Source: an uncultured Porphyromonas sp. (lineage in GTDB: Bacteria; Bacteroidota; Bacteroidia; Bacteroidales; Porphyromonadaceae). From it: DNA of 64,000 nt. Below, piece by piece: positions 17,617-53,932 of the stretch. The notes under the pieces were generated by a model. It was not told where the DNA came from, did not search any database, and worked only from the letters and a program-made list of their open reading frames with translations. Both the position numbers and the translations under genes were made by a program. The stretch spans positions 36,230 to 100,229 of the forward strand of contig CAZHWP010000001.1 in the NCBI GenBank assembly GCA_964535945.1. The letters are read 5' to 3'. Within the stretch, counting starts at the first letter, position 1. The number at the start of each line of letters is the position of its first letter.

Positions 17617-17626
17617 ATTTATTTTT

Positions 17627-18590: not shown

Positions 18591-18656
18591 GAAAGGGGCT
18601 TGTCTCACGACAAGCCCCTTTCCATTAACCTTAAATCTAATACCATGAAAAACACG
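18591..18656 (-). ncRNA. Putative small RNA with Bacteroidales core GTTTTTCATGGTATTAGATTTAAGGTTAAT plus terminator
   Basis: On the minus strand: -7 element TAGATTTG (18660-18667), then the core, then a perfect 14-bp stem gaaaggggcttgtc/gacaagcccctttc (18591-18622). No ORF present. Confidence 0.6.
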
Positions 18657-18952
18657 ATGCAAATCTAAGTACAATTTTTGATATAGGTGTAGTTTTCGGC
18701 TATTTATTACGACTTTTTCTGTCTTGGATTCTGAATTTTGGTAAATAGAGCTAGATAATGTTCTTTTGAGACAGGTTTTTGGCAGAATCGGTTCAAGGCT
18801 CTTCTGTGAGTTTTAGAAAATGGCTTGCTTTTGCCTTTATTTTTTAAGACTTTGCTTTTTTGCTTATAGGCTTTGTCGATTTCTCGAATTGTATGGAGCG
18901 ACCAGTGAAGAGTCGCCAAAGAAGTACCGCGTTTGCCTGCTCTTTGCTCGTA

Positions 18953-28110: not shown

Positions 28111-30054
28111 TTAAAGTTCGATCAGCTCGTCGAACATCAATCCACTATCGCCTTGCATTTGGCTAATCTGTTTTTGTGTCCCATACCAAGTGCATACTTG
28201 ACCATTGAGCCATCTGCTACGCTGGAAGTTGCAAACAACCTTGGTACCAACACCGAGAATTTCTTCTTCGTTTATATAGAGAGGAACTTCTTTCACGGAG
28301 CCGCTTCCTTTTTCTACTCTTAGAAGCGATGAAATTGGCCTTGCAGGTAGGTACTTGCCAATATCTGCCATGTATATTGGCATTTTTCCACGACGTAGGG
28401 CGATTTCTCTGTTAGCTTTGTCATCTTGGATGCGTTGTGGTAAGAATGGGATCCAATTGAGAGGTACAGAATTTTGCAAAATATACCTATAGTCTGCTAT
28501 CCCTGCTTTTTGTACTGCCTCTGTTTTTCCATCCTCGTTTTTGGTAATTTTTATTGCTCTATCGTCTTCTGAAAGTGGCTTATGAATGATTTCATCATTA
28601 AAGTCTTCTATAAATTGTGCAGTGCTAGCAGCTAATTGCTTACAATCTATAAAAGAGCCATATCCATCGTTCACACGGAGCTCTACCCCCCATACCATAT
28701 TTGCCATTTCGTCTCGCAAGAACTGGATCTCTTCGATAGGTTGGCTCTCAATAGTAAAGGGCAATGCTGGTGGGAAGAAAAGTGCATCGGAAGACTTTCT
28801 TGAATCTGAAGTCTCATTGAGGATGTTCATAGGAGCTTGGGTAAACAATTCCCATCGATTACCAAAGGAGTGTGCTTTGATACTGTCAGAACCAGCTCGT
28901 TCGTTGATATTAGTAGTAATGCCGAATGTGTCACGCACCTTGATGCTATTAACGCTAACTAAAGAACCAATGGTTACATCTAGGGGTATCAGCATCCAGT
29001 CATTGCCGTACATTGTCACGTATTGTAGCGTAACACCATTGGCAGTAGATTGCATTTCGTCTGAGTTGCCCATGTATACCTTTCGGTCTTCAAATTGCCA
29101 GAGCCTCTTATTGGGAGCACCTTCAAAGCGTGCCAAAGTGGGTAGGCCAACAAACTTATACTCTCTATCGGGATTGGATCCATTATTTGTTTTTTTGTGG
29201 TCGAATGAATACCAAGAAACGCGCCCCGAATGGTAATCTTCTGCCACAAAAGTGTCGTTGGAGGTTTGAGCTTCAAACTCATAACCTAGTTTTTGAGTAT
29301 TCCAAGCACTGGGTTTTGACTCAGAATGGGGTAGATAGCGGGATTCGAACCACTTAATATATAGCTCGCAGATATTTTTGGAGGCTGGATAATCTTGGCA
29401 TAGTTGAGCTTTGTTCTTCAAGTCGTGATAGAGGGATCGACCGTCGAAAGCTTTGCCAACATAGGCATTCTCGAATGTTTTTGCTTGACTATTTTGTTGC
29501 TCACTGAACTTTCTTACCTCTTCATGCTCGAGTGAAACTCTTTGCTTTTTGTTGACAAGTGGATATAGTATTTTGCAGCGCTCGTTAATTTCTTTGAAAA
29601 GAGGCTTGAGAGTACTATCATGCTTTATTAGACTTCTGAAATAGAGCGCCGATTCTACGCCTACTTGTGTCGTGAGGTCTTCGTTTATTCTCTCCACAGA
29701 AGGCTCAATTCCTGCGTCTGCTTTCATTCTTAAATCAATGCTCTGATTGCCAAAGCGTATTGTGTTCAGCTGGTGGGCCTTCAGACTAGCTGTTGCAACG
29801 ATGGCAGATCCTGCATCGTTACCTCTGAATTCACCAAACTGCCATTGTCGGGTGAGCATCCATAAGGGGTCGTGAATGCGAAAACTAAGCGAGTTGGTGA
29901 GATTTCGATTGCGAGATCTTGGCTCTAAACGATGACTAAACCTCAGTAAGTTCTCGTTTGCGTTTTTTCGCGCAAAGTCTGCATAGTTGGGATAATGGTG
30001 CTTAAGGTAGCTCTTTACCGCTATTTCGGCGTCATTATGTTGATTATAACTCAT
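28111..30054 (-). CDS. Conserved hypothetical protein, island gene 5 (647 aa)
   Basis: Long intact ORF. Motifs HDPLWMLTRQWQFGEF, YGNDWMLIP, RDEMANMVWGVE, VPLNWIPF and GDSGLMFD are recalled from hypothetical proteins encoded beside DUF6603 genes. Confidence 0.8.
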   Translation of the reverse strand: MSYNQHNDAEIAVKSYLKHHYPNYADFARKNANENLLRFSHRLEPRSRNRNLTNSLSFRIHDPLWMLTRQWQFGEFRGNDAGSAIVATASLKAHQLNTIRFGNQSIDLRMKADAGIEPSVERINEDLTTQVGVESALYFRSLIKHDSTLKPLFKEINERCKILYPLVNKKQRVSLEHEEVRKFSEQQNSQAKTFENAYVGKAFDGRSLYHDLKNKAQLCQDYPASKNICELYIKWFESRYLPHSESKPSAWNTQKLGYEFEAQTSNDTFVAEDYHSGRVSWYSFDHKKTNNGSNPDREYKFVGLPTLARFEGAPNKRLWQFEDRKVYMGNSDEMQSTANGVTLQYVTMYGNDWMLIPLDVTIGSLVSVNSIKVRDTFGITTNINERAGSDSIKAHSFGNRWELFTQAPMNILNETSDSRKSSDALFFPPALPFTIESQPIEEIQFLRDEMANMVWGVELRVNDGYGSFIDCKQLAASTAQFIEDFNDEIIHKPLSEDDRAIKITKNEDGKTEAVQKAGIADYRYILQNSVPLNWIPFLPQRIQDDKANREIALRRGKMPIYMADIGKYLPARPISSLLRVEKGSGSVKEVPLYINEEEILGVGTKVVCNFQRSRWLNGQVCTWYGTQKQISQMQGDSGLMFDELIEL

Positions 30055-30068
30055 GATGTAAGTGTCGT

Positions 30069-33000
30069 TTAGTGTTCGTTGTTGTATTTGTCTGTAGGGT
30101 ACGGCAAGAGTGGCAAGAAAGAAGACATAAAGTTGTCTTCGTAGATGTGGTCGGGCTCTACAGCACGTGATTTAACTAAGTGCATTGCACTCTTGATGGA
30201 ACGTTCAAAATCGGCTAACGACCAGTTTTTTGAAAGCCTTCTGCTAGCTGAAGAGCTGATGTTGGGAGACATAGCTAGAAGAATTGCGTGAGGAGCTTCA
30301 GCATCAGGTTGGTCGTAAGAGAATGCTAGACCTGCCGTCTGGGTCTTATAAGGAATGCGTTCTACCCAATAGTCAAGTACCAGACCAGCCATAGGACGGA
30401 ATCCTTCAGAATTAGGCACGAAGAGTTGTTCTTTATTTAACAGAACATAGGAACGCTTGTCACCAATCAGATCTTCACTTGAAAGGGTTGCTCCAATCCA
30501 TTCTCTCGATTCATTGTCGAAGGGCGTCTGCATGACGGCTAACGACACTTCGTCAAGATCGTGCCACTGTTGGAACATTCGGGCGTGTTGCAAGAGATGA
30601 ACAGGCTTCCGGACCTTAGCTGCTTCAATCATCCAGCCTTCTAAGTCGGGTGCAGAGATGTTTTTGAAGTTGAATTGGGTGTGCAGCTGTTTTTGGAATC
30701 CTTCTACATCGATCAAATTGTTGTCGACTCTGATTTTCGGAACCATTCGGAAAGTATTGGACAAGAGTTTTTGCATGCCCTTGAGATAGTCGTTAACGTT
30801 CTTCAAAGGTGATTCTTTGACAGCTGTTAGTCGATCTTGCATCAAGCGATGAATCTTCTTGAAATGAGGAATGAACGTTTTTTGAAGAGCTTCGGCTTTC
30901 AAGATTCCTTCAGGATCTTCCTCACGGGTGCGTCCTCGTTTGAAGATGTCAAACTCGATCCCGTCAAGTGCTTGAACTTCGCTAAAGCGATAGCAATCGA
31001 GCAACAAGCGGATGCCTTGCAAAAGTACTTCGTCTGACAAGATACTGTTGTCTGACAGTTCTTCCCATTGTGACATAAGTGTATCTAGCTGTTGCAATTT
31101 CTTATGTACTGCACCAAAGCGAGCTTTTATCTCGACAATGTCGTAGTCGGATGAGTCTGAGGATAAGTTTTCTTTTATCAAGTCGTCTGCCTTAAGAGCT
31201 CTACTATCTACAAGAGATTCACGCAACGATTCGATTGCCAATTGTGCTTCGGCTAAGGATATTGTATCCTCATCACCAATAGTGCAGGCTGCGTCTATTT
31301 CAGTTTGAGGAGCCTCTTGCGGTAGTGTTGAAAGACTAGTTAAATATATCCATTCGAGAAAACGGAAGAAAGAGTCGCCATTGCCAGATAGATAAACTAA
31401 TTCTGATGCACTCAAATTCAGCTGACTATCAAGCGACACGATATCGGTTATGTCATCAGACTTAAACCCTACACCGATACGTTTCAGTCCACCTAACATG
31501 CTATCGAGCCATTCGTCGATAGCTGGGTCGGCGATTTGCATAGTAGATTTTGTGTTGGGAGAGGGTACAGCAGCACTATTTAAGGCCACCATGACGCGCT
31601 GTTCTACGTGTGCACTATGCATTGGAATTTCAACCACGTCGGGAAGTGGAATGTTTCTGCCCTGCTGTACACAACTCATGAGGGCATCGACAGCCATGCG
31701 ATTGCCTTCACAGAGCTTATATACACTTTCTGTTAGAATTACATCGCTCAGTGCGTCAAATGTGTCTTCGATGCGTTGTAGTTGTTTGACAAGCAACTTG
31801 ATCTTTTTGTCGTACTTATTCACAAAGTCTTCTCCAAATACTTCATGTAGCCATGCTTTGAACTTTACAGAACTTTCTTTCTCCCAAAATAAATCGTACA
31901 ACTGTTTTTTGTCATTTCCCGCTAGATAATTGTTACGTAAGTCGTGAAGTAGGCTTTCACCATTGATTATTGTAGTATGGGAGGTTTTTTTATCTTCAGG
32001 CACAGTGGCACCGCTTCCATTAGCGAGATAAACATCTGCCACCAACGGATATTTTTGACGTAGGAAAAAGATCAAAGCATCCATTTCAATCTCATCTGTG
32101 CGATGGCATTCGTGTAGAAATCTCTCGAGGTCGGCACCAAGTACAGCTCCGACAGATAGTCCGTTTTGTAAGCCGCGAATCAATCGGAGTGCTTCTCTAA
32201 CTCGTACCGAAGATAAATTGACATTTAGACGATAATCCTCTTCCCTTCCTTCGCGAGCACGATTGTAGCTACTACGTAATACCGCGCCCGTAACTGCATG
32301 GTTGATTGAAGGTGCCAAGATGTATTCGTAGCTTTTTGCTTCTTGTTTGTCTGGTTTGAGATTGAAGACCCAACCAAATGCTCCAATTCGAACCTGGTGC
32401 TTTTGTTTACGAACTCGTTGACGTATTGCATAATTAAGCAATCCAAGCATCCAAGCATCTAGACGATATGTGAAGAGGTCATAGAACTCGGTTATAAGAA
32501 GTTCCATCTCTCTATCATCAACATTGAGATCTTTTATCAAACTTTTAAGCTCATCCCAATGAAAATCAATTTCGGACGTGAACTTCGTGTCTGAGATAGG
32601 TAAGCGATCGAAACTAGAAAGTAAATTAAGTAGTGCTTCACCAGGCTTTTTGTTGGTTTCGTCTCTGATGCCTAAAAGTGCAAAGAAGAACCTTTCTAAA
32701 TCTGCCATGGCATGGCTAAGGTTTTTATTGCCTCTGAAAAAGACTGGATTCAATAGGCTTCTTTCGCAAAGTTCTTTGCGTGAGTAAAACGATGACGAGG
32801 TTGGTGTGCAACCGATCATTTCTAAGTAGTTCTTCACGGAGTTCTCATTTGATAGATTCCCTTCATGAATTACGGATCGATTGCTAATGGCATTCCACTT
32901 TTCGGTTAGCCATAATAATAGTTGCGAAACCTTATACAGTTGATCTCCCTTAAGTTGATAATGCCTGAAGTCTGTAATAGGGAGAATGCCGTATGGTTGG

Positions 33001-35921
33001 GAGCCTATGCGAATAGGGGGGAATAGACCACGAGCGGAAACATCATCACCAACAAAACTACATACTCGTTCTACAAACCCCTTCACTTTGCGGTCATATT
33101 GGTGTAATTTATCATTTGAGATGAAGTGGGATATTAATTTCCGATTTACAGTAAGTGCTCTTTGAATCTCATGATTTGATCCATTGGAAACCCTTAGCAA
33201 CGGGTTTGTCTCGTGACTAGGATCCATGTTTAGTGCTGCAGCGAATCTGTAAGCATCTGATGTCTTATCATCAATGTTGCAGTATTTCAGATAATCTCGC
33301 TTGACATCATTCCTGTAGTGGGTTTCTGCCAATGTGACTTTAGATGTGTCATATGCAGTGGAATCACTATCGGTAAGTATGTTTGTGGGAGTGCCGATAT
33401 TGAGTAAGTTAAGACCTTCTTCGCTATAAAAGTGCGCATGAAATAAGTCATTGATGATTTTTTTAGACTCAGTTTCTGAACAATCTTTAATGCCTGTGAT
33501 GTAAATAGATTCAAAGCTCTGCCAATCTTTACCAATATCATCTAAGGGGATAGTAATGGCCATTCCCATTTTCTCGGCTTCGTAATAATTGGTCATCCAT
33601 TTGATGCCACTATTTACGGTTAGCCTGCCTGATTCGAGATTTACTTGGAATGGGTCAATGTCTGAGTTTTCGTTCAAATTCAGGCCAATCTGTAGCTCGG
33701 GGAATGTGCGACGACCATAAAAAGTGATTGTTTTACTCTTGTTTTTCGAATACCGAATCGTGCCCTCGAAAAGGAATCGATCGGGTAATGTGGGGGAAGT
33801 AGGCTTGCCGAAATCATTTGGTTGACGGTAGTTGTCAAAGTATGGGAAAACGAGGTCTTTTCCATCCTTATTTAAATGTGTTATAGCATCTTTGATCCAT
33901 GAATATGGAAGGTCTATTTTTCGTAACAATGTAATCATCTCGCCATGTAATCCGCTCATTGAAGACGGTGCCTTCAATATATCATTGCAGATAAGCTTTA
34001 GTTCGGCCAGTTGAGTGGACTCTGACTGTTCTTGACTAGATCTTCCGTCTAACCAGGCAGCAAGTCTATTCAGTAGAAGTTTATCATTGCCAAATAACAA
34101 GCGATTGACCACTTCTGTAGCTGAGCAACGAATCGAATTAAGGTGTTTGATAAATGCTTCTTTTGTTCGGAAGGGATCTGTGCTACTATCGAAAAAATCG
34201 TGTGAAAAATCGGCCTTCCCAATTAACCCTATGAGTTTATCGCAGTGATAATCGACCAAACATGTTAGTGCCTTAATCTTTCTTGGTAGCTCAGGGGTGA
34301 TAATTGCAACTTTGGGGAATCCTTTTTTTGGAACTTTCAATAAATGATAGATCCTGCGAAGAGTATTGAATGGGGCGCATTCTTTCAATTCTTTTACTGG
34401 TCGTGTTTGTCGTACAATCCAGCCCGCACGATATGCTGGATACATTTCGCATAACCCGTCCCAAGCCTCTCGCTCACGAATTGAGTCGCCAAGGGCGAGT
34501 GTGTAACGTAGCCAGAATCGTTTGCCGTCGTCTGCCTCTTGTTTGGTTAGTAGGGATACAAACTTATTGATTCCAACTTCGTCGGGATAAATGCGGACGC
34601 AGAGGCTATCCCGTTTTGCAGTAATCGTAGTGTTGTGCGGTTTTTGGTACTGTTCAAGCAGAGTCGTATCGACAGGATGACGCCGTCCGTTAGCATTCTT
34701 GTCGAAGAGTTGTTTTGTCAATGAAAGCCAATTCTTTGCATCGAACTCAATATCATTATAGGCAAGTAACACGTTAAACTGTTGAAGCATTAATACGGAT
34801 AGATTCTTCCCCTTCTGATAGTCAAAGAATACATTCTCTTTCATTCGCTTGAGTGTCTTGTAGCGATAGTAGTAGCGTTTTCCATCCTTGATCGCTAGCA
34901 GATGGTCAAGTTTCATTTTTAGTATCAAATGAATCAGATGCGTGTATCGAACTCTATTGAGCGGCTTTATGCGAATTTGTTCACGTAATTGAAGTGAAAT
35001 GCTTGAGAGCTCATCGACAATCTTGCGTACAGTGTAATGATAAGACGATAATAGTTCTTTTCCTTGTTCTTGCCACTCTATTTTACCCAATCCGAAGTTT
35101 AAATTATCCATATTCGTATTGAAGTCATCCAGCAGAGCATCCCTAACTCCTACAATTCGATGAATACAATTGTTGTATTTGGCACGCTGATTGGCCTTCA
35201 TAGAGGGGACCTTTTCAAGCTCTTCCATGATCGAATAAACAAATGATAAACTCTCCTCTAAGTGCTTGGTAATATGGTTCATCATGTTCCGATTGCCCTT
35301 CTTGGGGTTTAACACATGCTTCCCTCTGTATGGAGTGGTAGAGTAGTGAGTCAGTACTTCAATGCGTCGCACCATTTTTTCGAATTTACGAAGCAAAATA
35401 GTGGCACGATCTGCCTTGATACTCTTCACTGTAGGTATGCTTTCGGCATACTTACAGATGTCATCGCAGATCGAATTTAGTGAAGGCTGCCATTCGGCCG
35501 GAAAAACGCTGGCTATAGTATGGATATGGCGAGTAAGCTGGATAATAAGAGCTTTGTCTTCGTAGTATATCCCGTCAAGATAACCAATGAGCATTGCCAA
35601 ACGATAGAATTGTTTTGCAATATGCTTGCGGTTGGTAATCGTTTTGTATTTGATGTATACAAGGCTAGGAATATCGCCTAGCTCATTGAAGGCTGTTTCA
35701 TGTGGACATAATAAACTATGAAGAATAGCATCATTGAGTATGTGGTTCAGTTGTGAAAATACACCTGCTACCCGATGTTGCTCTTTTGTTTTGAAAGGAC
35801 GATGCTTCTTAAAGCGAGTCTCTATGCGTAGAGGAAACATGACGAATGATGTATCTCGCGACTCTGAATGCAATTGACGAGTGACGATAGCTTCTCCTAT
35901 CTGTTGAATTCTATTTTTCAT
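30069..35921 (-). CDS. Giant conserved hypothetical protein, island gene 4 (1950 aa)
   Basis: Intact ORF with motifs FPLRIETRF, VRIYPDE, LPDRF, GTPTN, YRLDAW, APSINHAVTGAVLRS and YDQPDAEAPHAILLA. No signal peptide seen. Confidence 0.8.
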   Translation of the reverse strand: MKNRIQQIGEAIVTRQLHSESRDTSFVMFPLRIETRFKKHRPFKTKEQHRVAGVFSQLNHILNDAILHSLLCPHETAFNELGDIPSLVYIKYKTITNRKHIAKQFYRLAMLIGYLDGIYYEDKALIIQLTRHIHTIASVFPAEWQPSLNSICDDICKYAESIPTVKSIKADRATILLRKFEKMVRRIEVLTHYSTTPYRGKHVLNPKKGNRNMMNHITKHLEESLSFVYSIMEELEKVPSMKANQRAKYNNCIHRIVGVRDALLDDFNTNMDNLNFGLGKIEWQEQGKELLSSYHYTVRKIVDELSSISLQLREQIRIKPLNRVRYTHLIHLILKMKLDHLLAIKDGKRYYYRYKTLKRMKENVFFDYQKGKNLSVLMLQQFNVLLAYNDIEFDAKNWLSLTKQLFDKNANGRRHPVDTTLLEQYQKPHNTTITAKRDSLCVRIYPDEVGINKFVSLLTKQEADDGKRFWLRYTLALGDSIREREAWDGLCEMYPAYRAGWIVRQTRPVKELKECAPFNTLRRIYHLLKVPKKGFPKVAIITPELPRKIKALTCLVDYHCDKLIGLIGKADFSHDFFDSSTDPFRTKEAFIKHLNSIRCSATEVVNRLLFGNDKLLLNRLAAWLDGRSSQEQSESTQLAELKLICNDILKAPSSMSGLHGEMITLLRKIDLPYSWIKDAITHLNKDGKDLVFPYFDNYRQPNDFGKPTSPTLPDRFLFEGTIRYSKNKSKTITFYGRRTFPELQIGLNLNENSDIDPFQVNLESGRLTVNSGIKWMTNYYEAEKMGMAITIPLDDIGKDWQSFESIYITGIKDCSETESKKIINDLFHAHFYSEEGLNLLNIGTPTNILTDSDSTAYDTSKVTLAETHYRNDVKRDYLKYCNIDDKTSDAYRFAAALNMDPSHETNPLLRVSNGSNHEIQRALTVNRKLISHFISNDKLHQYDRKVKGFVERVCSFVGDDVSARGLFPPIRIGSQPYGILPITDFRHYQLKGDQLYKVSQLLLWLTEKWNAISNRSVIHEGNLSNENSVKNYLEMIGCTPTSSSFYSRKELCERSLLNPVFFRGNKNLSHAMADLERFFFALLGIRDETNKKPGEALLNLLSSFDRLPISDTKFTSEIDFHWDELKSLIKDLNVDDREMELLITEFYDLFTYRLDAWMLGLLNYAIRQRVRKQKHQVRIGAFGWVFNLKPDKQEAKSYEYILAPSINHAVTGAVLRSSYNRAREGREEDYRLNVNLSSVRVREALRLIRGLQNGLSVGAVLGADLERFLHECHRTDEIEMDALIFFLRQKYPLVADVYLANGSGATVPEDKKTSHTTIINGESLLHDLRNNYLAGNDKKQLYDLFWEKESSVKFKAWLHEVFGEDFVNKYDKKIKLLVKQLQRIEDTFDALSDVILTESVYKLCEGNRMAVDALMSCVQQGRNIPLPDVVEIPMHSAHVEQRVMVALNSAAVPSPNTKSTMQIADPAIDEWLDSMLGGLKRIGVGFKSDDITDIVSLDSQLNLSASELVYLSGNGDSFFRFLEWIYLTSLSTLPQEAPQTEIDAACTIGDEDTISLAEAQLAIESLRESLVDSRALKADDLIKENLSSDSSDYDIVEIKARFGAVHKKLQQLDTLMSQWEELSDNSILSDEVLLQGIRLLLDCYRFSEVQALDGIEFDIFKRGRTREEDPEGILKAEALQKTFIPHFKKIHRLMQDRLTAVKESPLKNVNDYLKGMQKLLSNTFRMVPKIRVDNNLIDVEGFQKQLHTQFNFKNISAPDLEGWMIEAAKVRKPVHLLQHARMFQQWHDLDEVSLAVMQTPFDNESREWIGATLSSEDLIGDKRSYVLLNKEQLFVPNSEGFRPMAGLVLDYWVERIPYKTQTAGLAFSYDQPDAEAPHAILLAMSPNISSSASRRLSKNWSLADFERSIKSAMHLVKSRAVEPDHIYEDNFMSSFLPLLPYPTDKYNNEH

Positions 35922-35935
35922 GTCTGTACATGTGC

Positions 35936-38900
35936 TTAATTAATTAAGAAATCTCTGCAGGGTGCTGCCCAAATAACCGGTTGGTGTACCCTATCTTTTG
36001 CCCATGATGCGCTATCTGTAATCGTATCGCTGTTTTTGTTGTCGAAATGCAAAGCCACATCGCGTTCCTGAAAAGTTAAGTAGTGTTTTTCCTGTATCTG
36101 ATCCGCATTTGTTGGGAATCCTACAAGATAAGTGTCGTTGTTTAGCCAAGCCGACATGGATGGCATTATCACCGAATTACCAGTGTAGCCCTCTATTGGA
36201 ATTTGGGTTAAGTAGATAAATGTTTGTGGAAAGGCCTGTAGTAGCTCCCCTTTGATAGCAAATATTAGTAAGTCCTTTTTATCGTCTGCATGATTGGCTC
36301 CTAAGTGCCCCTGCCACTCATGTAAGTATTTAACATCCCAGTATGCTTCCTGGGTGGGGTCTTCTTCTGAATCCCAAAATTTTCGGAAATATGAACCACG
36401 TTCGTCTGAGGGATATTCGCGCCACAACAGCTCTCGTCCCATCTCGGTATTCATTCCACTTAAAAAGGACTCAACAAATTCGGTGTTGTTTTTGAAGAGA
36501 GAAATGCTGTTATCTGGCAGTTTGTCTACAGAAGGCAAAATGAATCGTTGCGACAACTCGCGCAAATAAAAGTAGGTGGGGTCGGGGTATTCGGGATAAA
36601 CCATAATCGGGTATTTGGATCGAAGCAAATCCTCGATTATAACTTGATCTGTCATTCCTATTCCATTATAATAGGTTTCAAGTATTTTTTTCATCTTTTC
36701 TTCGGCTTCTGCGGAAGCGTCGATCAGATCGGTACTCTGAATGTCCTTTCCTTCAATTACAGGAGCTTTCGGCTCTTGAGGTGTGAACGTAGAGCTAAAG
36801 GCATTCCACTCTTGTGCGTAACGTTTTACTACATCGATTAAATTTTTAGTAGAGGTGCCAATTTCATTGACTGCTGCAGGCCCTTCTACCAGCTCCCATG
36901 CGCTATATGTTGTGCTGGCTTCATCAATCTCAATATACTCTGGTTCATAAAAGATACTAGCAAATTCGTCCAAAGCACTGATTGCATTTTTTATTTCTGG
37001 CAATAATCCAGTCTTCCCATCTTCAGATTTTATTGTTAAGTTACAGGTGTTTTTGTCTATCATTTCGAGCAATCCTAGAGAGATAGCATTATGGAAACAA
37101 ACTTGATGAATTCCTTTCCTTGTGTCGTGTAATTCAACTCTGCCTTTTTTGAATACTCGGAAGTAGAGCCCTTTTACACCTTTGATGCTAACATCAACAT
37201 ATGTACCAATTTGGAAAAAACGTATTGTGATCTTTGGTTTGTTATTAAAGTTTTCCTCAAAAATCCTTTCGTAGTGCTTCAACGTTTTGTAACGTGACAT
37301 ATATTTGAGCGGATCCTCAGCTTTACCCATTACAAACTCGTGATCGTCACGATCTATGTCACCAACATTCCGAAGGTCGTATCCTTTTGATACTGATCCT
37401 TTTACGTATTCAGATTGAAGCATGCCGATATGGTAATCGGCTTCTATATCGAACGAACTTCCATTGAACTGAAGTTTTGAAACACCATATTTTTTATACC
37501 AATCCTGTGGAAGTAAGAAGGAAGAAAAATATGGAAATTTCCTGATATAGCAAGTTGATTTTTTGTTTGTTATTATACTTACGGGGTAGAAAAAAACTAC
37601 GGACGATTCTGTTTCTGAGCTTGTATATCGTACTCCGACTCCCCCACTAATATTGTGTTTTTTTATAAACGTGCCAAAGATTCGTTGAAAGGTGGGGTCG
37701 GGTAATAGATAAGCATTTTGAGTTTCGTTTTTAGTGGTGGTAACTGGAACAGGCAGTATGTTATCTAATAAACGATTAGAACCACTTACTTTTTCTTTTT
37801 GCTCGTATGATCTTAGCAAGTAATCTTTATGTAGCTTGTTGTAGTTGCGTACTTTCTCCATGAAGTTGGGTAAGTCGCAATGCTCGTCGTAATAATCCTT
37901 GTAGCCATCTAAATCATCGAAGCCACTAAGCCATACCAAAATTTGCTGAACATCACCATTGTTCAATGCGGAGCCCCTGAAAGCTGGTCCTTGATTGAAG
38001 GCAAATTCGAAAGGGTGCTTCAGATCATCGATAGTAATGTTTTGCGTTTTGTGATTGTAGCTGAGTCCATTATACTCGACTTTCAATAACCCATCGAATG
38101 CCTTCGCCAATGGATAATTGACAGAGATGCTTTCGTAAGGGTTTCCTCTCTTTACGTTGTATGCCTTGTTGAGTACCTCATTTTGAAAGATTACTACTTT
38201 GGCTGCATTGTCATATAATGGTAGTTCGGTAATGTCGTCATTGGGCGCTTTTAGCAAAGTATTCATAAAAGCTTCATCCACACCTGTTTGTTGGATGTAA
38301 TTTGGCTTGTCGTATTCATTTACAGCTTCAAGGTTCAACACAATGTTGTCAGCTGTTAGATCTTTTTGATTTGATAGATTGACCGTCCTAATAAAGCTGT
38401 CTGTACTAAGACCGCTGATTTCGCCAACTTTCTTTACAGCCTGCTTGGTTTTGTTCAATTTTTTGTTGACATGCTTCTTGGAGGTGGCTCGTTCGGTATT
38501 AGCTATTGCTAAGCGCTCACGGAGCTGCTGATTTAAACTGTTGATACGCTCTACTTGCAACCAAGCTCGCTGTACGAACTGTTCTTGGTATGTTTGAACA
38601 ACTTTCTTACCTAGACCTCCTGAGGCGCGGTTGCGGATAGCTAGGTTTTGCTGACTTACCCAATCCTCGTGATAAGAATCGAGCGATGTAGAAAGTGCAT
38701 GTTTGGCTCCATAAATCGGGGGTGTAACCCAGGGATCTTCTTCCATATTGGCTACTTGCCCAGTCCCTTCTTGTATGAGCCTATTTTCTTCGAAGACAGG
38801 ACTTAAATCAAGTAAATCCTTTAAGTCTTTGCGTACATGGTCACTTTCTTGCCTTAGGGTGCTGCTATCAAGCTTCGTATTTGGTAAAATGCAAGCAACG

Positions 38901-39892
38901 GGTACATCGATGACTGGAGCTGCTGATGTAGATTGGGGGCTGTAGCTACATGAAGGGATACCACAGTTTGATAAATCCGCGCTCAGACTATTCGGTAATT
39001 TGTTTAGAACATTTTTGTCAATGGGATTCAGTTTCTTAGCCAATTTGAAAAAGACATTGCCACCAGCCGAAAAACTCCATTGATAATATATAGGGAATTC
39101 AGAGTTGCGAGTTCTCTTCTGTTGCTCTTCAAATGTTTTTGCCCATGCTCCAGTTTGTGTATCCGCTCCTTCAAGCTTTTCACCTAATCCATTCAGCCGT
39201 CCAAGTTCGAATGAAGGGATCAAGAACGCTGCATATCGTGTTGCTGAATTTTTAATCAGCCCTTCTAACTTTCTTGGTGCAAAAATACGTGATAGTCCAG
39301 CCTCGGGATTTTGGGCTAAAAATATGTTTAGCCACGAATTGTCTACCACATTGAACTGTTCAATTGTTGATAGTTGCACGTGTGCAAACAAGTGCAATTG
39401 ATCAATAGGGGGTAATATTTGATTGTAATTCTCCTTAGTGAGATTTAGTTTCAGTACCTGAGATCCATCGGATTGGTTTTGAAGGCTATACTCGCCATCT
39501 TTACAAACAATTAGAGCCATCCATGGTCTAAGCTTTTTGTCGTCTGCAGCTAGTGGAGTATAACGCCAAGGTAGATCTTCTTCAAAAAATTCGATGCATG
39601 GCAGATAATCAGAACAATATGCCTCCGTGCCATCTAGTGGTACTGTTTGCAATACAGCGCTTGGGCTTATGCTTTTTACATCGACGTTGCCCACCAAATC
39701 GAACGAAAAAGATTCTTTTTTTTCACTTACATCGTTACCCACTGTTTTTCGTTTGAAATCAAAGTCGATATTGACAGATCCGCGAAGGCTTGTAGAAGAC
39801 TCAGTTGCGGTTCCCAACTTGTCTATTTCCGTTATGTAGGTATTCAAACCTTTTCGCAGAAAGGGGAGAAAGGTATAATAGTTTGTTGACAT
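35936..39892 (-). CDS. Large conserved hypothetical protein, island gene 3 (1318 aa)
   Basis: Intact ORF. N-terminal YTFLPFLRKGL, IEFFEEDLPWRYTP and LRPWMALIV; C-terminal ELLWREYPSDERGSYFRKFWD. Confidence 0.8.
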   Translation of the reverse strand: MSTNYYTFLPFLRKGLNTYITEIDKLGTATESSTSLRGSVNIDFDFKRKTVGNDVSEKKESFSFDLVGNVDVKSISPSAVLQTVPLDGTEAYCSDYLPCIEFFEEDLPWRYTPLAADDKKLRPWMALIVCKDGEYSLQNQSDGSQVLKLNLTKENYNQILPPIDQLHLFAHVQLSTIEQFNVVDNSWLNIFLAQNPEAGLSRIFAPRKLEGLIKNSATRYAAFLIPSFELGRLNGLGEKLEGADTQTGAWAKTFEEQQKRTRNSEFPIYYQWSFSAGGNVFFKLAKKLNPIDKNVLNKLPNSLSADLSNCGIPSCSYSPQSTSAAPVIDVPVACILPNTKLDSSTLRQESDHVRKDLKDLLDLSPVFEENRLIQEGTGQVANMEEDPWVTPPIYGAKHALSTSLDSYHEDWVSQQNLAIRNRASGGLGKKVVQTYQEQFVQRAWLQVERINSLNQQLRERLAIANTERATSKKHVNKKLNKTKQAVKKVGEISGLSTDSFIRTVNLSNQKDLTADNIVLNLEAVNEYDKPNYIQQTGVDEAFMNTLLKAPNDDITELPLYDNAAKVVIFQNEVLNKAYNVKRGNPYESISVNYPLAKAFDGLLKVEYNGLSYNHKTQNITIDDLKHPFEFAFNQGPAFRGSALNNGDVQQILVWLSGFDDLDGYKDYYDEHCDLPNFMEKVRNYNKLHKDYLLRSYEQKEKVSGSNRLLDNILPVPVTTTKNETQNAYLLPDPTFQRIFGTFIKKHNISGGVGVRYTSSETESSVVFFYPVSIITNKKSTCYIRKFPYFSSFLLPQDWYKKYGVSKLQFNGSSFDIEADYHIGMLQSEYVKGSVSKGYDLRNVGDIDRDDHEFVMGKAEDPLKYMSRYKTLKHYERIFEENFNNKPKITIRFFQIGTYVDVSIKGVKGLYFRVFKKGRVELHDTRKGIHQVCFHNAISLGLLEMIDKNTCNLTIKSEDGKTGLLPEIKNAISALDEFASIFYEPEYIEIDEASTTYSAWELVEGPAAVNEIGTSTKNLIDVVKRYAQEWNAFSSTFTPQEPKAPVIEGKDIQSTDLIDASAEAEEKMKKILETYYNGIGMTDQVIIEDLLRSKYPIMVYPEYPDPTYFYLRELSQRFILPSVDKLPDNSISLFKNNTEFVESFLSGMNTEMGRELLWREYPSDERGSYFRKFWDSEEDPTQEAYWDVKYLHEWQGHLGANHADDKKDLLIFAIKGELLQAFPQTFIYLTQIPIEGYTGNSVIMPSMSAWLNNDTYLVGFPTNADQIQEKHYLTFQERDVALHFDNKNSDTITDSASWAKDRVHQPVIWAAPCRDFLIN

Positions 39893-39905
39893 TCCGATGG
39901 TGGTA

Positions 39906-42356
39906 TTAATGTTGATTTATTGACTCTATCAATTCCTTGAATTTGCTCTCTTTCTGTATATCCAGAATAGTCATGTGGTGATCGAAAGAGGTCTTGTCAC
40001 GACGTGCGTAGCCTAATCTGAATATCTGATTGTTGCTAGTATCCGATGTGTTTGTATTGGAGCTGTCAGTATTATCAACACTCTTTATTTCAGTTATATA
40101 CTCAACTGCAGTTTGCTTATGACTATTATCAGGGGTATGATAAGAATTGAGCTGAGATAAAGTAAAGCCACAGCGCCATTGCAAATAGGAGGGCGATTCT
40201 AGCTTTTGCTCCAATGAAAGGTTTTGGTAGAGTGAGGGGGCGAAGTCTGCATGTTCATATTCGTATTCGATCGGATTGTTATTGATCGATATATTCTCGA
40301 GATTGATAGCCGAGAAATCGATTGGTAACATCCCATTATACAACTCCATCTTTTCCAGAGCATTGGAGTCTGTCTCTTCGTTTTCGTTACAGAAAGGGAC
40401 TGCAGACTGCTTGAATGAAATCTGATCGTAGGGCTGTAGTACAATTCGATCCGTAGTCTGTGTCATTTCTCCAAAGTTCACTTGCATGTCTGTTAGCAAG
40501 TTCTCTTTTACTGTCCAGTTTCGTGAGTTATGGAGCTCGGCGATAAGCAATGGATATACTTCTACAGTCTTTTCTGGAAGAGACTGAGCTTCATCGCCCC
40601 AAACGAGGTCAAAAGAAATTGGAATTGGAATAAGGAGAAGCCAGAACTTGGCTGTGCCTTTGATACGCCATGGCTGAGGCCCTTCGATGCCAAGCGCTAG
40701 GTCGATAGATAACAATTTAACCGAGCCAATTTTAACAGCCATTCCAGCATAGAGATCGAACATAAACATGAACGGATCGAATTGGAATAAGCAATCAAAG
40801 CCAGCATAACCACTAATGCCAAATTTTTTCCATCCTACCAACAGATCTAGCCTAGCACCTATTTGGAAAGTGTTTGATGTTATGGCAAGGTAGGTCTGCA
40901 GAGAGATTTTTAAAATCTTATAGTCAAGCTGCATTCCCACTCGTTTCATGTCTGAAACCATCATGCCTTTTTCGGGAGTGTATGAAGGGTGGAAGCCCCC
41001 TAGAGATAGTATGAAGCCTCTGGTCTTGCCACCCCAAAAGAGTCGGAAGGCCATGTCACCAAACAACTGTATCCCTACAATATGTGAGTTGACGATGGAG
41101 GCATCAAACCAAATGCCCTCGACGAAATTAATTCCTCCAGCAAAGCAAACATTCAATTCGATGACATCTTCGGCATCTTCGATGCCTACGTGTAGGACGC
41201 CTACAATAATAATTTCTACAGGCTTGGGCAGTTGTAGTAGAAGGCCGATGTTGACGTCTACTATTGGCTCGAAACTAATTCGAGCAAGTAATCCGAGGAA
41301 AAACTGACCCTTTTTCTCGGGGAAATAGGTTTTGACAGAGGTCTTTATCTCAGAGAGGTGCTCCTTGATGTTCTCGACAAAGAATACGCTTTGAAGGGTT
41401 CCGCTACGTACGCCTTTCATAATCCCTTCGCGGTCTAGCATACGGTTCAGCCCAAGTGCTCCACCGATACGAGTGAGTGAGAAGCCCATGCCTAACGGAA
41501 TGCCTGGTTTGAACGAAACCGATAGCATACCAACAAAACTAAATATCTGCCCTTCACGAGTGCCTAGGTTGCAAATAACCAAAGCGGACACTCCGAACTT
41601 CTTGAGAATTGTCAGTTCTATGGCTCCTATTAGCTCAGCACTTTCACTATCGTATGAAATAAAACCTCCACCTTCAACTGCTGGACACTCAATCGCAATT
41701 CCGATAGCACTTGGGAAACGGAATCGGCTATCAAAGTCCCAGTCGCCTATGCTACCACCTTTCTTCAAAAAGCTCAAACCAAATCCCAATCCGAGATCTT
41801 CGAAAGAAAAAGTTACGGCCTTGAAGTCTACCTTGAAAGATGAAAGTACATCAAAGTTGATATCTCCACCATCATCCATATCAAGTCCAGATTCGACTGA
41901 AAACTTTTCGAATGTAACAGGTCCGATCGTTTTGTGATTTAAATCAAAATCAAGTTTCAGCTTCACGTCACCTCCAAAGCTGAGCCCCTTTTGCAGATCG
42001 TAGGCGAGGGAAGTGCTAAAGCCGATTTCAATATCGTCTTTGAGAATCACTTTGAAGAAACTACTTGTTTCTTTCAGTTTTAGAGTCAGGATAGCATTTT
42101 CGATTGTGCCTTCGTATCCAACCTGAAGCGCATTCTCTTTGTACCCAACGTAAACCTCTTGAGGATAGTCTTTTATTGTGAGCTTTAAGTGTTCTTGGTC
42201 GAACACCTTCAAAGGCTTATATTCATCTTTGCGACTAAACTTAGCCCTGAGCATGATCGACAAATTGTCGGTACTTGATAACCCATGCACGCCATCGGAG
42301 TCGATGTAAAAACCGAGGCCATTTTGCAGGTTTGATTGTTCTTCGGAGTTTGGCAT
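39906..42356 (-). CDS. DUF6603-like domain protein, island gene 2 (816 aa)
   Basis: Gly/aromatic beta-strand motifs VEGGGFISYD, GMGFSLTRIGGALGLNR, YLAITSNTFQIGARL, GFDCLFQFDPF and GPQPWRIKG resemble DUF6603 as recalled; not HMM-confirmed. Confidence 0.72.
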   Translation of the reverse strand: MPNSEEQSNLQNGLGFYIDSDGVHGLSSTDNLSIMLRAKFSRKDEYKPLKVFDQEHLKLTIKDYPQEVYVGYKENALQVGYEGTIENAILTLKLKETSSFFKVILKDDIEIGFSTSLAYDLQKGLSFGGDVKLKLDFDLNHKTIGPVTFEKFSVESGLDMDDGGDINFDVLSSFKVDFKAVTFSFEDLGLGFGLSFLKKGGSIGDWDFDSRFRFPSAIGIAIECPAVEGGGFISYDSESAELIGAIELTILKKFGVSALVICNLGTREGQIFSFVGMLSVSFKPGIPLGMGFSLTRIGGALGLNRMLDREGIMKGVRSGTLQSVFFVENIKEHLSEIKTSVKTYFPEKKGQFFLGLLARISFEPIVDVNIGLLLQLPKPVEIIIVGVLHVGIEDAEDVIELNVCFAGGINFVEGIWFDASIVNSHIVGIQLFGDMAFRLFWGGKTRGFILSLGGFHPSYTPEKGMMVSDMKRVGMQLDYKILKISLQTYLAITSNTFQIGARLDLLVGWKKFGISGYAGFDCLFQFDPFMFMFDLYAGMAVKIGSVKLLSIDLALGIEGPQPWRIKGTAKFWLLLIPIPISFDLVWGDEAQSLPEKTVEVYPLLIAELHNSRNWTVKENLLTDMQVNFGEMTQTTDRIVLQPYDQISFKQSAVPFCNENEETDSNALEKMELYNGMLPIDFSAINLENISINNNPIEYEYEHADFAPSLYQNLSLEQKLESPSYLQWRCGFTLSQLNSYHTPDNSHKQTAVEYITEIKSVDNTDSSNTNTSDTSNNQIFRLGYARRDKTSFDHHMTILDIQKESKFKELIESINQH

Positions 42357-42466
42357 AGGGTGGGTGTTATTAAGGGTTTATTGTATGTTGCTATTAACAG
42401 CTATCATCAGACTTCTAAAAATCAATTCGTTTTCATTCTTTCTCTAATTCGTCGTTGCTTGTGTGC

Positions 42467-45142
42467 TTAGACACCTAGGCGATTGATGCTATCATTATAC
42501 TCATTTTCATAATTGACGTTGAACTCTACATTCGGGGAGCTCATAGCAGCCTCTACAAGTTCTGCCATTTCTCCTTCAAGCTCTATGCTAAGCAAGTGCT
42601 TGCCAAATGTGAACTTGGCTTCGGCATTTGCCGATACAATGGGTATGACGAAAAACGCTGGCTTGCCCTCCTTATTCTCCCCAATAAAAAGACAAACTTG
42701 CAATGCAGCTGCAGTGTTAAATTCAAGATGAGTATCTTCAAGTTTACCTTTTAGATTTAGAAGTGTAGCGCAGAAGAACTTAGATTCTACATCGAGTGTA
42801 TAGCCTATGTTTTTTACGTAGTCAGTGAAACCATTGGAAGGCATGTTGGGTAGTAAGTCGTAGAACGACTGCTTAGCTTCAGCTGGCATTTTTCCGAAGA
42901 AATCTTGAATAAAACGCAGTATGTCTGGCAATTTGACACTTCGAGTACTCAATCGAATAGCTTGTGGAATTACCCAACTCATCCACTTAATATAGGCGAT
43001 TGCTTCGGAGTCAAGCTCAATTTTTACCTCTTTCAAAGCATCTGTATTAGGAGCTTCGAGCGTAATAGAAGATGATTCTTGGTAGTTTTGTAACTGTTTG
43101 CCTACCTTGACCACATCTTGTACTTGCAGAATCGCAGTACTATTATCATTAATGATATCCTCAATGAAGAGGTCGGCTAGTTCATATAGTGCATCAACGA
43201 GAAGCTGCTTTAGGCACTCTGTTATCGGGGTTAGTATGCGACGTTTTATAATGTCCCATACTTCTGCAAGTTTTTCCTCGTCTAAACTCTTATGTAGATC
43301 AAGCTTTTTGCATAAGCTATCATAGTAGAGGTTGGGATTGGGAATTGCAACTTCTGAAGCAGCAGTGCGGATTATTTTTAGGTAGTCTGTTATATCTATC
43401 TCGTCAAATAAATGTCCAATTGTGCCGTTGAAATCTGCCACCAACTTCTTAGCTCCCTCTTTTGTGAAGAGGGAAGTGATGTTTTTTAGGTCGGAATCAA
43501 ACTCCTCTTTTAGCCGTAAAAATACTTTTTCGAATCGTTTTTCCCATTCAGTTGGAGATATGGTGTTTTTGAGGTCTTCCAGTGTTTCGTTACCCCAATC
43601 TTTCAACTTGTCAGCAGAGATTGATACTTCGAATAGATCGTGCAAATCTTTGCTCAATCCTTCCCAGTCGGCATTCAGGTAAGGTCGCAAATCGGGTGTA
43701 GACAAATGTTCTAACGCTTTTATTGCGAGTTCATGCTCTGAAAAGGATTCTGGTAGTTCTATCTGTATGTTTGATGGATCTATTTTGTTAAAGGCTTTTT
43801 CCAAGCGTAAACCCACCACGTTTAGCAAGGCTTTGTATTCATCCAAGAGGTCTTCTATTTTCATCTTCATCTGCTTGGCGACATCTTTCAGCATTTCAAT
43901 GATCATCCTTATCATCATCACAATTGGCTCAATATTTTTCCATAACTCTTTTACAGCTTCGGATGCAGATGTAAGAATGTGATCTTCTAGCTTATGCAGC
44001 AACGAAATGAGCATGCTTTTGATGGATGAGAAGTCTGGCACATCTGGATTAAAAACGCGTGCCACTTGCATTATTCGAGTCAGGAGTTGCTCGGCTTGTT
44101 CGAAACTATCTACCTGATATAAGCCTTTTAGGTAGTTGATTGGTTCTGCAAATAGGCTTGGCAGTTTGTCCCAATGGATGATGTCGATTGTGATGGGGTA
44201 GCTACTATGGGAAATATTCTTTTCGGCATATTGCAAAAGACTGCTGGGACTCACACCTATTAAATCGGCACTAAGCTGAAGAGGTTTCGGTAGATCTGCG
44301 ACGTTTTTCTTTAGATCGTTTATACTGTTTAAGACACTATCTGGTATTTTCAATCGGATGGTGGTAGTACCCATCAGACCAAGAAGATCGAGAATAGCGT
44401 AGATGCCGTTCACTGTGCGAGATACCTTCAGGTAAAAATCGGGATCCATTCCATCCTCTATTTGTTGCTCCAGAATTTCCGCCTGCTCACCTAGCCGATT
44501 TTTTACTTCATCTGCGCGTTGGGCAGCTTCGGACAATAGAAGACGTGCATTATTGCTCAGCTCGGATGTCGCATCTTGTAATTGATTGCGAACGTCAGAT
44601 GCTAACTGCTTGCAGTAGCTAATTTCGTCGGCAAACACGTTACGTAGATTTCGTAGTAGGGTGATTAGGATGTGATCTAATAAGCGCTTACCCATCCGTT
44701 TTCCTAGCTCTTTCAACTTGTCAGGTGAAGCTTCATCAGACAGCTCTTCCATGACCTTTTCGAACTCTATATTTGTAAACGACTTAATTAGCTCTGTTAC
44801 TCCTTTGATTGTTTCCAATAGGTCTTTGCCAATGGCAGTCCAATCTGGATCTTCTTCTTTACTAACTTTGTTGAACAAAGTCCCCAGCTTCTCAGTCAGC
44901 TTAAATAGACCTTTCAGGAGATCTTTTAACTCTTTCGTCTCATCATGGTGGCAGATGTCGAATCCTATACGCGCGAATATCGCTTCGATGAAAATCGTTA
45001 CGGTCTCAAAGTCAGGTTCATCTTTTTGTGGATCTTCGGATTGTTTTCGTATTGACACGAATTCTTGCTCCAAGTCTTGGAGTAGAGCTTCTTTCGTCTT
45101 CGATAGTACCAAAAGAACTTTGGAGAGAATCGTAGTTTCCAT
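42467..45142 (-). CDS. Helical/coiled-coil hypothetical protein, island gene 1 (891 aa); probably the N-terminal part of a split DUF6603 protein
   Basis: Acidic, Leu/Lys/Glu-rich and helical. IYAILDLLGL and IHWDKLPSLFAEPINYLKGLY resemble N-terminal regions of DUF6603 proteins. Ends in beta-strand-like sequence. Confidence 0.7.
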   Translation of the reverse strand: METTILSKVLLVLSKTKEALLQDLEQEFVSIRKQSEDPQKDEPDFETVTIFIEAIFARIGFDICHHDETKELKDLLKGLFKLTEKLGTLFNKVSKEEDPDWTAIGKDLLETIKGVTELIKSFTNIEFEKVMEELSDEASPDKLKELGKRMGKRLLDHILITLLRNLRNVFADEISYCKQLASDVRNQLQDATSELSNNARLLLSEAAQRADEVKNRLGEQAEILEQQIEDGMDPDFYLKVSRTVNGIYAILDLLGLMGTTTIRLKIPDSVLNSINDLKKNVADLPKPLQLSADLIGVSPSSLLQYAEKNISHSSYPITIDIIHWDKLPSLFAEPINYLKGLYQVDSFEQAEQLLTRIMQVARVFNPDVPDFSSIKSMLISLLHKLEDHILTSASEAVKELWKNIEPIVMMIRMIIEMLKDVAKQMKMKIEDLLDEYKALLNVVGLRLEKAFNKIDPSNIQIELPESFSEHELAIKALEHLSTPDLRPYLNADWEGLSKDLHDLFEVSISADKLKDWGNETLEDLKNTISPTEWEKRFEKVFLRLKEEFDSDLKNITSLFTKEGAKKLVADFNGTIGHLFDEIDITDYLKIIRTAASEVAIPNPNLYYDSLCKKLDLHKSLDEEKLAEVWDIIKRRILTPITECLKQLLVDALYELADLFIEDIINDNSTAILQVQDVVKVGKQLQNYQESSSITLEAPNTDALKEVKIELDSEAIAYIKWMSWVIPQAIRLSTRSVKLPDILRFIQDFFGKMPAEAKQSFYDLLPNMPSNGFTDYVKNIGYTLDVESKFFCATLLNLKGKLEDTHLEFNTAAALQVCLFIGENKEGKPAFFVIPIVSANAEAKFTFGKHLLSIELEGEMAELVEAAMSSPNVEFNVNYENEYNDSINRLGV

Positions 45143-45283
45143 GCTGAAAATATGTGTAAATTAATTGAGGCAATAAGTCAAAATCTGAAGCCTAATAAAA
45201 ACAAGAAGAAAAAAACGACGATTTGTGTGAACAAAACAAGCTGAGACTAAATAATCGTAGTTGTTCTCTTCTGAAGAGGTAAA

Positions 45284-45314
45284 AAAGACGGCGATTTTCA
45301 AAATCGCCGTCTTT
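45284..45314 (-). terminator. Intrinsic terminator upstream of the island operon
   Basis: Perfect 14-bp stem aaagacggcgattt/aaatcgccgtcttt. A T run follows on the minus strand. Confidence 0.7.
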
Positions 45315-53887: not shown

Positions 53888-53932
53888 TGCTTTTTATGTG
53901 TAGATGGAGATTCCAATAGATCGCTTACTTAT

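Follow-up and report, generated by a model that had tools for sequence, protein, structure and literature searches.

What do five giant, co-oriented genes in a Porphyromonas chromosome encode? The question is raised by a block at positions 28111 to 45142 of a 64,000-nucleotide (nt) stretch of DNA from an uncultured Porphyromonas sp. (GenBank assembly GCA_964535945.1, contig CAZHWP010000001.1, positions 36,230 to 100,229 of the forward strand), hereafter called the window. An initial annotation, made from the letters alone, had described the block as five giant uncharacterized genes around a DUF6603-like protein. Comparison with relatives assigns the five genes to four families, namely, a DUF6603 protein (here encoded by P1 and P2), P3, P4, and P5. 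The five intact open reading frames (ORFs) thus stood, but the number of families did not, as P1 is split off from the DUF6603 protein. That the block is one transcription unit for these four families, without a solved or annotated relative, is well supported by the comparisons, and we tentatively read it as a conflict or immune surveillance system. P1 to P5 denote the window ORFs in transcription order, L0xx the loci of relatives, and P0xxx homologous proteins. The features of the locus are as follows.

42467-45142, minus strand: P1, 891 amino acids (aa), alpha-helical; DUF6603 N-terminal module that was split off, the variable "head"
42357-42466, minus strand: P1/P2 spacer of 110 nt, the point of gene fission
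39906-42356, minus strand: P2, 816 aa; short form of the DUF6603 protein, with much beta structure and a high content of Gly and hydrophobic residues
35936-39892, minus strand: P3, 1318 aa; conserved N- and C-terminal domains flank a variable middle
30069-35921, minus strand: P4, 1950 aa; conserved core and two variable helical inserts
28111-30054, minus strand: P5, 647 aa; the most conserved subunit
45143-45314, minus strand: upstream leader/promoter region, bounded by a terminator-like hairpin at 45284-45314

All five ORFs are intact, ATG initiated, and co-oriented on the minus strand, with a total of 5,622 aa, and the sizes given in the initial annotation (891, 816, 1318, 1950, and 647 aa) were reproduced. 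The gaps between the genes from P1 to P5 are 110, 13, 14, and 14 nt, in agreement with the described distance of 13 to 14 nt between the last four. The block had also been noted to be more AT-rich than its flanks, with two sampled lines given that proved to be exact (19/60 G+C at 37501-37560 and 37/60 at 27061-27120). Over its full length, the GC content is 41.6% versus 48.9% in the rest of the window, and the GC content at third codon positions (GC3) is 0.39 to 0.45 in the cassette genes versus 0.51 to 0.61 in the flanking genes. Both flanks are ordinary Bacteroidales chromosome, with PorZ, a C1 peptidase, a leucine-rich repeat protein, and YchF on one side and a polysaccharide biosynthesis protein, an asparagine-synthase-like protein, a DUF3667 protein, and MscS on the other. 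About 140 nt ahead of the P1 start codon, at 45284-45314, lies a perfect 15+15-nt palindrome that is terminator-like and may insulate the operon from upstream transcription. The 1.1 kb upstream of P1 (45143-46263; 39% GC) contains no supported ORF of any length and no Rfam family. A scan for sigma-70 promoters and terminators yielded sites that were not in excess of those in shuffled sequence, and a search for invertons upstream of P1 revealed no inverton-like repeats, only the terminator-like palindrome. As each protein has hundreds to thousands of homologues and ratios of nonsynonymous to synonymous substitution rates (dN/dS) were below 1, P1 to P5 are, on this comparative evidence, real genes and not chance ORFs.

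The distribution of the block was analyzed by a profile scan with the P3 alignment, using one genome per species (185,579 species genomes). At least 589 loci (of 600 matched stretches) encode a P3 relative, and the ORFs called in the best 79 of these were searched with P1 to P5 of the window. The order DUF6603-P3-P4-P5 on one strand was found in essentially every sufficiently long locus of the best 79 and also in L001, L003, L085, L090, and L092, a set that includes Flavisolibacter and rumen contigs as well as a haloarchaeal plasmid. The loci span at least eight bacterial phyla (groups with the cassette are Bacteroidota, Actinomycetota, Acidobacteriota, Chloroflexota, Gemmatimonadota, Planctomycetota, Ignavibacteria, Deferribacteres, and Proteobacteria), which bears out the statement in the initial annotation of a conserved gene cluster in scattered phyla. 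The window itself encodes all four families, co-oriented and in the order DUF6603 > P3 > P4 > P5, and its proteins carry the cassette signature motifs of P3, P4, and P5 on invariant or near-invariant columns. Porphyromonas crevioricanis ATCC 55563, an uncultured Porphyromonas, Prevotella, and Muribaculaceae are host-associated carriers, and the cassette is also present in many rumen and gut Bacteroidales metagenome-assembled genomes. The claim that it is unusual in a host-associated Porphyromonas is therefore to be dropped. P5 relatives were further found on thirteen large plasmids, mostly megaplasmids, of Streptomyces, Gemmatirosa, Rhizobium, Paraburkholderia, and four haloarchaea; that of Salinigranum marinum carries the whole cassette with a PhoD-like gene ahead of it. 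In L090 the cassette genes overlap by 4 nt, and P0335 is a complete P4-P5 fusion protein. Some genomes or contigs hold two cassettes. One contig (L088:1-22410) has two in tandem, the first with P5 split into 310 and 379 aa. A DUF6734 gene comes after this first cassette, as it does after P5 in L029 and in the Porphyromonas loci L023 and L027.

P2 clearly belongs to the uncharacterized Pfam family DUF6603 (PF20248; E = 1e-89, 301.9 bits versus a cutoff of 27, residues 141 to 656, model positions 2 to 473 of 502), as the initial annotation had suspected. The search with P2 returned 179 homologues (E ≤ 1e-5), and PF20248 was found in 120 of the 120 listed. The Pfam entry describes one domain, in contrast to the fixed four-family cassette seen here, of which P3 to P5 are in no family database. 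Neither single-sequence nor profile searches of PDB sequences with P2 revealed a relative, and a self-comparison of DUF6603 by hhalign gave no clear internal repeats. In blastp, P1 covers residues 7 to 1047 of the 1866-aa DUF6603 protein L039_1 (E = 3e-82) and P2 covers its residues 1059 to 1797; the same tiling was observed on 11 other long Bacteroidales DUF6603 proteins (P2 at ~1059 to 1797). In general, the first ~1000 residues of the long Bacteroidales forms (1,850 to 2,260 aa) align with P1 and the remainder with P2. In addition, residues 312 to 364 of the P1 family resemble the N terminus of typical ~1150-aa DUF6603 proteins (hhalign, 96% probability). Going by the blastp tiling and the hhalign match, P1 is the N-terminal part of the DUF6603 protein and not a fifth family. 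Its hidden Markov model (HMM) matches are otherwise weak and compositional (tape-measure, ZorA-tail, and apolipoprotein helices).

In the best 79 loci, DUF6603 proteins fall into length classes of about 820 to 890, 1,130 to 1,230, 1,850 to 2,260, and 2,890 aa, and short forms of 816 to 892 aa recur at 47 to 97% identity. The species of L092, whose proteins are 62 to 72% identical to those of the window, shares the layout (890, 824, 1322, 1934, and 649 aa), with a 106-nt spacer at the P1/P2 position, and a separate P1-like gene is also present on a rumen contig (L003). Judged from these comparisons, the P1/P2 split is old and stable. A fresh frameshift, considered as an explanation, was ruled out by the persistence of the split at 47 to 97% identity and in L092 and L003. 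L005 (10001-23426) represents another type of DUF6603 locus, in which three tandem DUF6603 genes (1141, 1148, and 1151 aa) are each followed by two small ORFs and P3 to P5 do not lie beside them.

The three other families share a pattern of conserved cores and variable insertions. In the P3 family alignment, the N-terminal (1 to 460) and C-terminal (1085 to 1318) domains are conserved around the variable middle, and among 194 homologues Pfam domains were present in none except fusions. Residues 1154 to 1174 of P3 read ELLWREYPSDERGSYFRKFWD, and the signature motif ELLWREYP..RGSYFR.FWD lies on invariant or near-invariant columns. P4, for which a direct search returned 8 homologues and the conservation profile was based on 65, is conserved at residues 25 to 40, 440 to 510, and 700 to 1950, i.e., in a 1,250-aa core and two short N-terminal elements, with variable helical inserts at about 50 to 420 and 515 to 690. 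Its motifs LPDRF (712 to 716) and GTPTN (843 to 847) are likewise on invariant or near-invariant columns. P5 yielded 3,230 representative clusters (50% identity) at E ≤ 1e-3 and accepts insertions near residue 290 and extensions at either end. Its N-terminal motif DPLWMLTRQWQxGEF (residues 61 to 76, HDPLWMLTRQWQFGEF) is the most conserved of the family, again on invariant or near-invariant columns. All motifs quoted in the initial annotation were thus recovered at conserved positions. hhalign comparisons among the four families revealed no paralogy. A hydropathy scan of P1 to P5 detected no N-terminal signal-like segment, as had been stated, and no convincing transmembrane helix; signal peptides and convincing transmembrane helices were also absent from the accessory proteins and the archaeal core versions.

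To place the families, the proteins were compared with sequence, profile, and structure collections. P3, P4, and P5 had no match in Pfam, NCBIfam, PADLOC, or PHROGs, and none of the five window proteins matched a nuclease, ATPase, or integrase HMM in these databases, in accordance with the absence of such motifs reported initially. PADLOC-DB v2 returned nothing for P2 to P5 and only ZorA for P1 (E = 0.0058, 13.3 bits), over a 55-residue helical stretch and hence compositional. An NCBIfam match to Upx reached 13 bits versus a cutoff of 1900, and the matches of P1 to several tape-measure PHROGs (E about 1e-6) are low-complexity helical ones. Searches of PDB sequences, with single sequences (P2, P3, and P4) and with profiles (P2 to P5), gave nothing beyond helical-bundle noise. 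AlphaFold2 models were obtained for P0140, a minimal P3 homologue of 825 aa (mean predicted local distance difference test score [pLDDT] 80.7, predicted template modeling score [pTM] 0.71), and for the window P5 (pLDDT 82.2, pTM 0.78). Foldseek, which the initial annotation had suggested together with single-chain modeling, found no match at E < 0.1 in PDB or BFVD for the P3 core and none in PDB for P5. In the confident P5 monomer model, the motif at residues 61 to 76 lies in a low-confidence N-terminal stretch, as expected of a peptide that docks to a partner, and is probably a docking peptide. No publication on DUF6603, PF20248, or the cassette was found in the library searched. Since no known kind of system could be matched by HMM or structure, in line with the earlier statement that no function is assigned, and P3 to P5 have no counterpart in Pfam, NCBIfam, PADLOC, or PDB sequences, the system appears to be new in kind.

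The initial annotation had named signs of relaxed selection as a point that would speak against a functional machine; purifying selection was found instead. Relative to a near-identical metagenomic contig (L098), dN/dS was 0.38 for P1, 0.22 for P2, and 0.27 for P3. In the same comparison, P1 and P2 differ by 3 to 4% of amino acids and P3 and P4 are 99.8 to 100% identical, so that 39906-45142 is a mosaic, pointing to recombination or a higher rate of change in the head module. Relative to the sister species, dS was saturated for P1 to P4 (dN 0.19 to 0.29) and only P5 could be estimated, with a dN/dS of 0.065. The cassette genes are under purifying selection, and all cassette ORFs are intact in both species compared. 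A pseudogene or decaying island was ruled out by the ORFs intact in two species and dN/dS values below 1. In the sister species the cassette occupies a different chromosomal site; on contigs of the window's own species it stays beside ychF. The claim of horizontal acquisition probably holds in view of GC and GC3, the differing site, and the megaplasmids. More generally, an accessory and horizontally mobile nature of the cassette is well supported by its presence in at least 589 loci among 185,579 species, by low GC and GC3, and by differing sites, megaplasmids, and double cassettes.

Variation among the relatives is concentrated at the start of the operon. An upstream co-oriented accessory gene from one of six recurrent families was present in 35 of 44 loci with a DUF6603 protein of 1100 to 1300 aa and in none of 20 loci with one of >1600 aa. 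This contrast suggests that the head module comes in either of two forms, as a long N-terminal extension of DUF6603 (P1 in the window) or as the upstream gene. The upstream families comprise a PhoD-like protein of ~865 aa, which also occurs in an archaeon, an M64-like protein of ~970 aa, and three unknown families; the sixth is defined by a ~165-aa C-terminal domain on diverse N termini, in one to five tandem copies. The cluster with the latter domain includes subtilases with an intact Asp/His/Ser triad and without a signal peptide, and the shared domain may serve as a docking or adaptor domain. Comparison by hhalign of the accessory families with each other, with P1, and with DUF6603 N termini detected no shared docking domain except the ~165-aa domain within its one cluster. 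Little or nothing was obtained from Pfam for long P4, long P5, and the accessory families or from PDB for three accessory proteins. At the other end of the operon, an MnmH-like gene (rhodanese plus P-loop, similar to tRNA 2-selenouridine synthase, below the NCBIfam cutoff) lies directly downstream of P5 on either strand; it adjoins 12 of 17 loci with P4 of ≥2100 aa and only 2 of 46 other loci.

Rare fusions to host proteins were found in a small clade of relatives. In gut and rumen Bacteroidales, a complete EF-Tu, its G motifs intact, forms the C-terminal end of a P3 homologue, and the C-terminal domain of the RNA polymerase alpha subunit (alpha-CTD) interrupts EF-Tu domain 3 immediately ahead of its last strands. 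The adjacent P4 homologue has a second EF-Tu at its N terminus, in which the G motifs are degenerate (GLVEHGKT, DCLGY, and DNCD); identity between the two EF-Tu modules is 52%. In other DUF6603 proteins, two or three S1 domains form the C terminus. Among P5 homologues, fusions to a helix-hairpin-helix motif and a weak, subthreshold Laminin_G_3 match (20.6 bits versus a cutoff of 27.6) were seen. Archaeal P5 carries two lamin-tail domains, archaeal P4 a haloarchaeal BGTF surface domain, and an actinobacterial DUF6603 extension has a weak alpha/beta-hydrolase match. The loci concerned are as follows.

L001:7532-9856 and L037:4182-6590: examples of genes with the ~165-aa domain; tandem ORFs of this kind lie upstream in L026, L038, L043, L054, L076, and L083
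L016, L017, L018, L026, L028, L030, L046, L048, L051, L052, L053, L055, L067, and L082: loci with an MnmH-like gene
L085:4538-23629 (also L086 and L087) and L088:10001-13138: loci with host-protein fusions

The fused host proteins are known from phage biology. The T4 ADP-ribosyltransferases Alt, ModA, and ModB target EF-Tu, S1, and RNA polymerase alpha, and the Gol peptide of the T4 capsid is bound by EF-Tu (PMC3014915). The capsid sensor Avs7 uses EF-Tu as a structural cofactor (PMC13581612).

What kind of system would combine these properties? From the P4-P5 fusion P0335, the tight or overlapping gene spacing, and the unplaced P5 motif, we infer that the products work together physically. 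They would form a large cytoplasmic hetero-complex. As to its role, our tentative preference is for a horizontally mobile conflict or immune surveillance system. This reading is placed first because the spread is patchy and crosses domains, heads can be swapped, arms tolerate insertions, the head is mosaic between strains, and classic phage targets occur as fusions. Under it, the DUF6603 domain, the N- and C-terminal domains of P3, the 1,250-aa core of P4, and P5 would form a core that carries helical arms of variable length and insertion sites, and these would expose surfaces for binding, or "baits." Copies of host proteins that phages attack, namely, EF-Tu, the alpha-CTD of RNA polymerase, and S1 domains, would act as baits in some relatives. 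Output or specificity would come from a swappable head, encoded either by a separate upstream gene (subtilase, PhoD-like, or M64-like) or by a long DUF6603 N-terminal extension such as P1. All of this sensing and effector logic is our inference. A stronger version is more doubtful, namely, that the cassette represents a new class of immune or conflict machine of Bacteria and Archaea, built of four giant proteins without a recognizable NTPase or nuclease and equipped with host-hub baits in some lineages.

Comparison with known immune systems reveals likeness and difference. Like Druantia, Zorya, BREX, DISARM, and Lamassu, the cassette is an operon of 12 to 17 kb for very large proteins with patchy horizontal spread and swappable modules, and its helical arms are reminiscent of the ZorA tail or of SMC-like arms. 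Unlike these large antiphage systems, it has no helicase, ATPase, methylase, or nuclease domain, has no restriction-modification, toxin-antitoxin, or Abi family among the 25 commonest neighbor families listed for 59 loci, and has no relatives of P2, P3, or P5 in viral contigs. As in plant nucleotide-binding leucine-rich repeat receptors with integrated domains (NLR-IDs), a minority of members carry fused host proteins that are pathogen targets, and the EF-Tu fused in some relatives recalls the structural cofactor of Avs7 (PMC13581612). In contrast to NLR-IDs and Avs7, the cassette has no STAND/NLR NTPase module, and the window copy contains no host-protein fusion.

Several observations weigh against a conflict function and hold our confidence in it down. 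The core proteins contain no recognized NTPase, nuclease, protease, or other effector domain and match nothing in PADLOC, and the window cassette has no enzyme-like head. The EF-Tu, S1, and alpha-CTD fusions are limited to one small clade, with none in the 79 genome loci or in the window, and they could instead serve in nucleic acid binding or docking. Many defense systems ride on prophages, but no relatives of P2, P3, or P5 were found in 2.9 million viral contigs (IMG/VR). Pfam analysis of 150 neighbor ORFs from 59 loci placed AraC, type IX secretion C-terminal sorting domains, aminotransferases, and PAS/histidine kinases among the 25 commonest families, and none of the 25 listed was a restriction-modification, toxin-antitoxin, abortive infection (Abi), integrase, or transposase family. 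Neighborhoods inspected individually likewise consisted of housekeeping and regulatory genes; AbiE and PIN toxin-antitoxin genes were seen near the haloarchaeal copy only.

The same housekeeping surroundings, with no signature of mobile elements or defense islands among the commonest neighbor families, would suit a cytoplasmic assembly outside conflict, such as a giant scaffold or cage that confines hydrolases or acts on the translation or tRNA apparatus. We consider this unlikely, though it ranks second. It would account for the lack of signal peptides in core and accessory proteins, for the hydrolase-like partners (subtilase, PhoD-like, M64-like, and alpha/beta-hydrolase), for the association of long P4 with the MnmH-like gene (12 of 17 loci versus 2 of 46), and for the strong purifying selection, and the EF-Tu and S1 fusions point to translation. 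However, the patchy spread over well under 1% of species (at least 589 loci), the atypical GC content, the shifting site, the megaplasmids, and the transfer between domains of life are more in keeping with accessory conflict genes. In addition, the head modules show no relationship among themselves, and the window cassette has no enzyme partner. Decidedly less probable is a toxin or adhesion complex that is released by lysis or secreted nonclassically and delivers or displays a variable enzyme module to other cells. The giant proteins without signal peptides in a multigene operon, the horizontal spread, and the variable hydrolase genes adjoining the cassette do resemble loci of Tc toxins and extracellular contractile injection systems, and relatives contain surface-type modules (lamin-tail P5, BGTF P4, and the subthreshold Laminin_G_3 P5). 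Unlike in those loci, no homology to TcA, TcB, TcC, RHS, sheath, tube, baseplate, or spike proteins was found in Pfam, NCBIfam, or PHROGs or by clustering of the neighbor genes, the P3 and P5 models have no corresponding fold, and the neighborhoods contain no recurrent lysis cassette, immunity gene, or secretion gene. Furthermore, EF-Tu, S1, and alpha-CTD fusions are implausible outside the cell, and a single design is kept across archaea and diderm and monoderm bacteria.

The constancy of design bears equally on the membrane-bridging beta-groove system proposed in the initial annotation, in which the DUF6603 domain would serve lipid or envelope transport in the manner of AsmA, TamB, or LptA. 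The domain is indeed rich in Gly and in hydrophobic beta-strand sequence, but this likeness is only compositional, with no sequence match to the AsmA/TamB families. As the cassette is unchanged in diderms, monoderms, and haloarchaea, with copies in monoderm Actinomycetota, Chloroflexota, and haloarchaea that all lack an outer membrane, and no subunit has a signal peptide or membrane anchor, we regard such a role as highly improbable. Slightly more improbable still is an origin as a phage, prophage, or other mobile-element remnant or module with tail, tape-measure, or baseplate-like genes. The weak tape-measure PHROG matches of P1 (E about 1e-6) could be read in this way, as could the P4 and P5 homologues near one end of a human fecal scaffold labeled "UNVERIFIED: Bacteriophage sp." (L091; MT835531.1, record 10109-40042), although the former are compositional matches of helices and not specific ones. 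P2, P3, and P5 have no relative in IMG/VR, the P3 model has no fold match in BFVD, and no integrase, terminase, capsid, or tail gene adjoins the cassette in 79 loci; the window likewise has no tail genes close to P1. MT835531.1 itself probably represents a scaffold of bacterial origin or a fragment of the cassette.

Elsewhere in the window, the FopS small RNA family of Bacteroidetes was detected at 18585-18655 on the minus strand (66.3 bits, above the gathering score) as the sole Rfam match. Two further low-GC stretches at ~16000-19000 and ~51000-54000 (0.40 to 0.45 versus ~0.49 elsewhere) may be other acquired segments.

Whatever its function, at least 589 species genomes, from Bacteroidota to Actinomycetota and haloarchaea, devote 14 to 20 kb to four co-inherited giant proteins. 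Solving the system would make it possible to annotate thousands of giant genes now called "hypothetical" and would probably bring to light new folds and a new principle of assembly. Should the bait reading hold, the cassette would be the first prokaryotic immune system with fused decoys, a counterpart of the integrated-decoy receptors of plants. For oral, gut, and rumen Bacteroidales, it constitutes an island that varies between strains and could influence fitness or sensitivity to phages.

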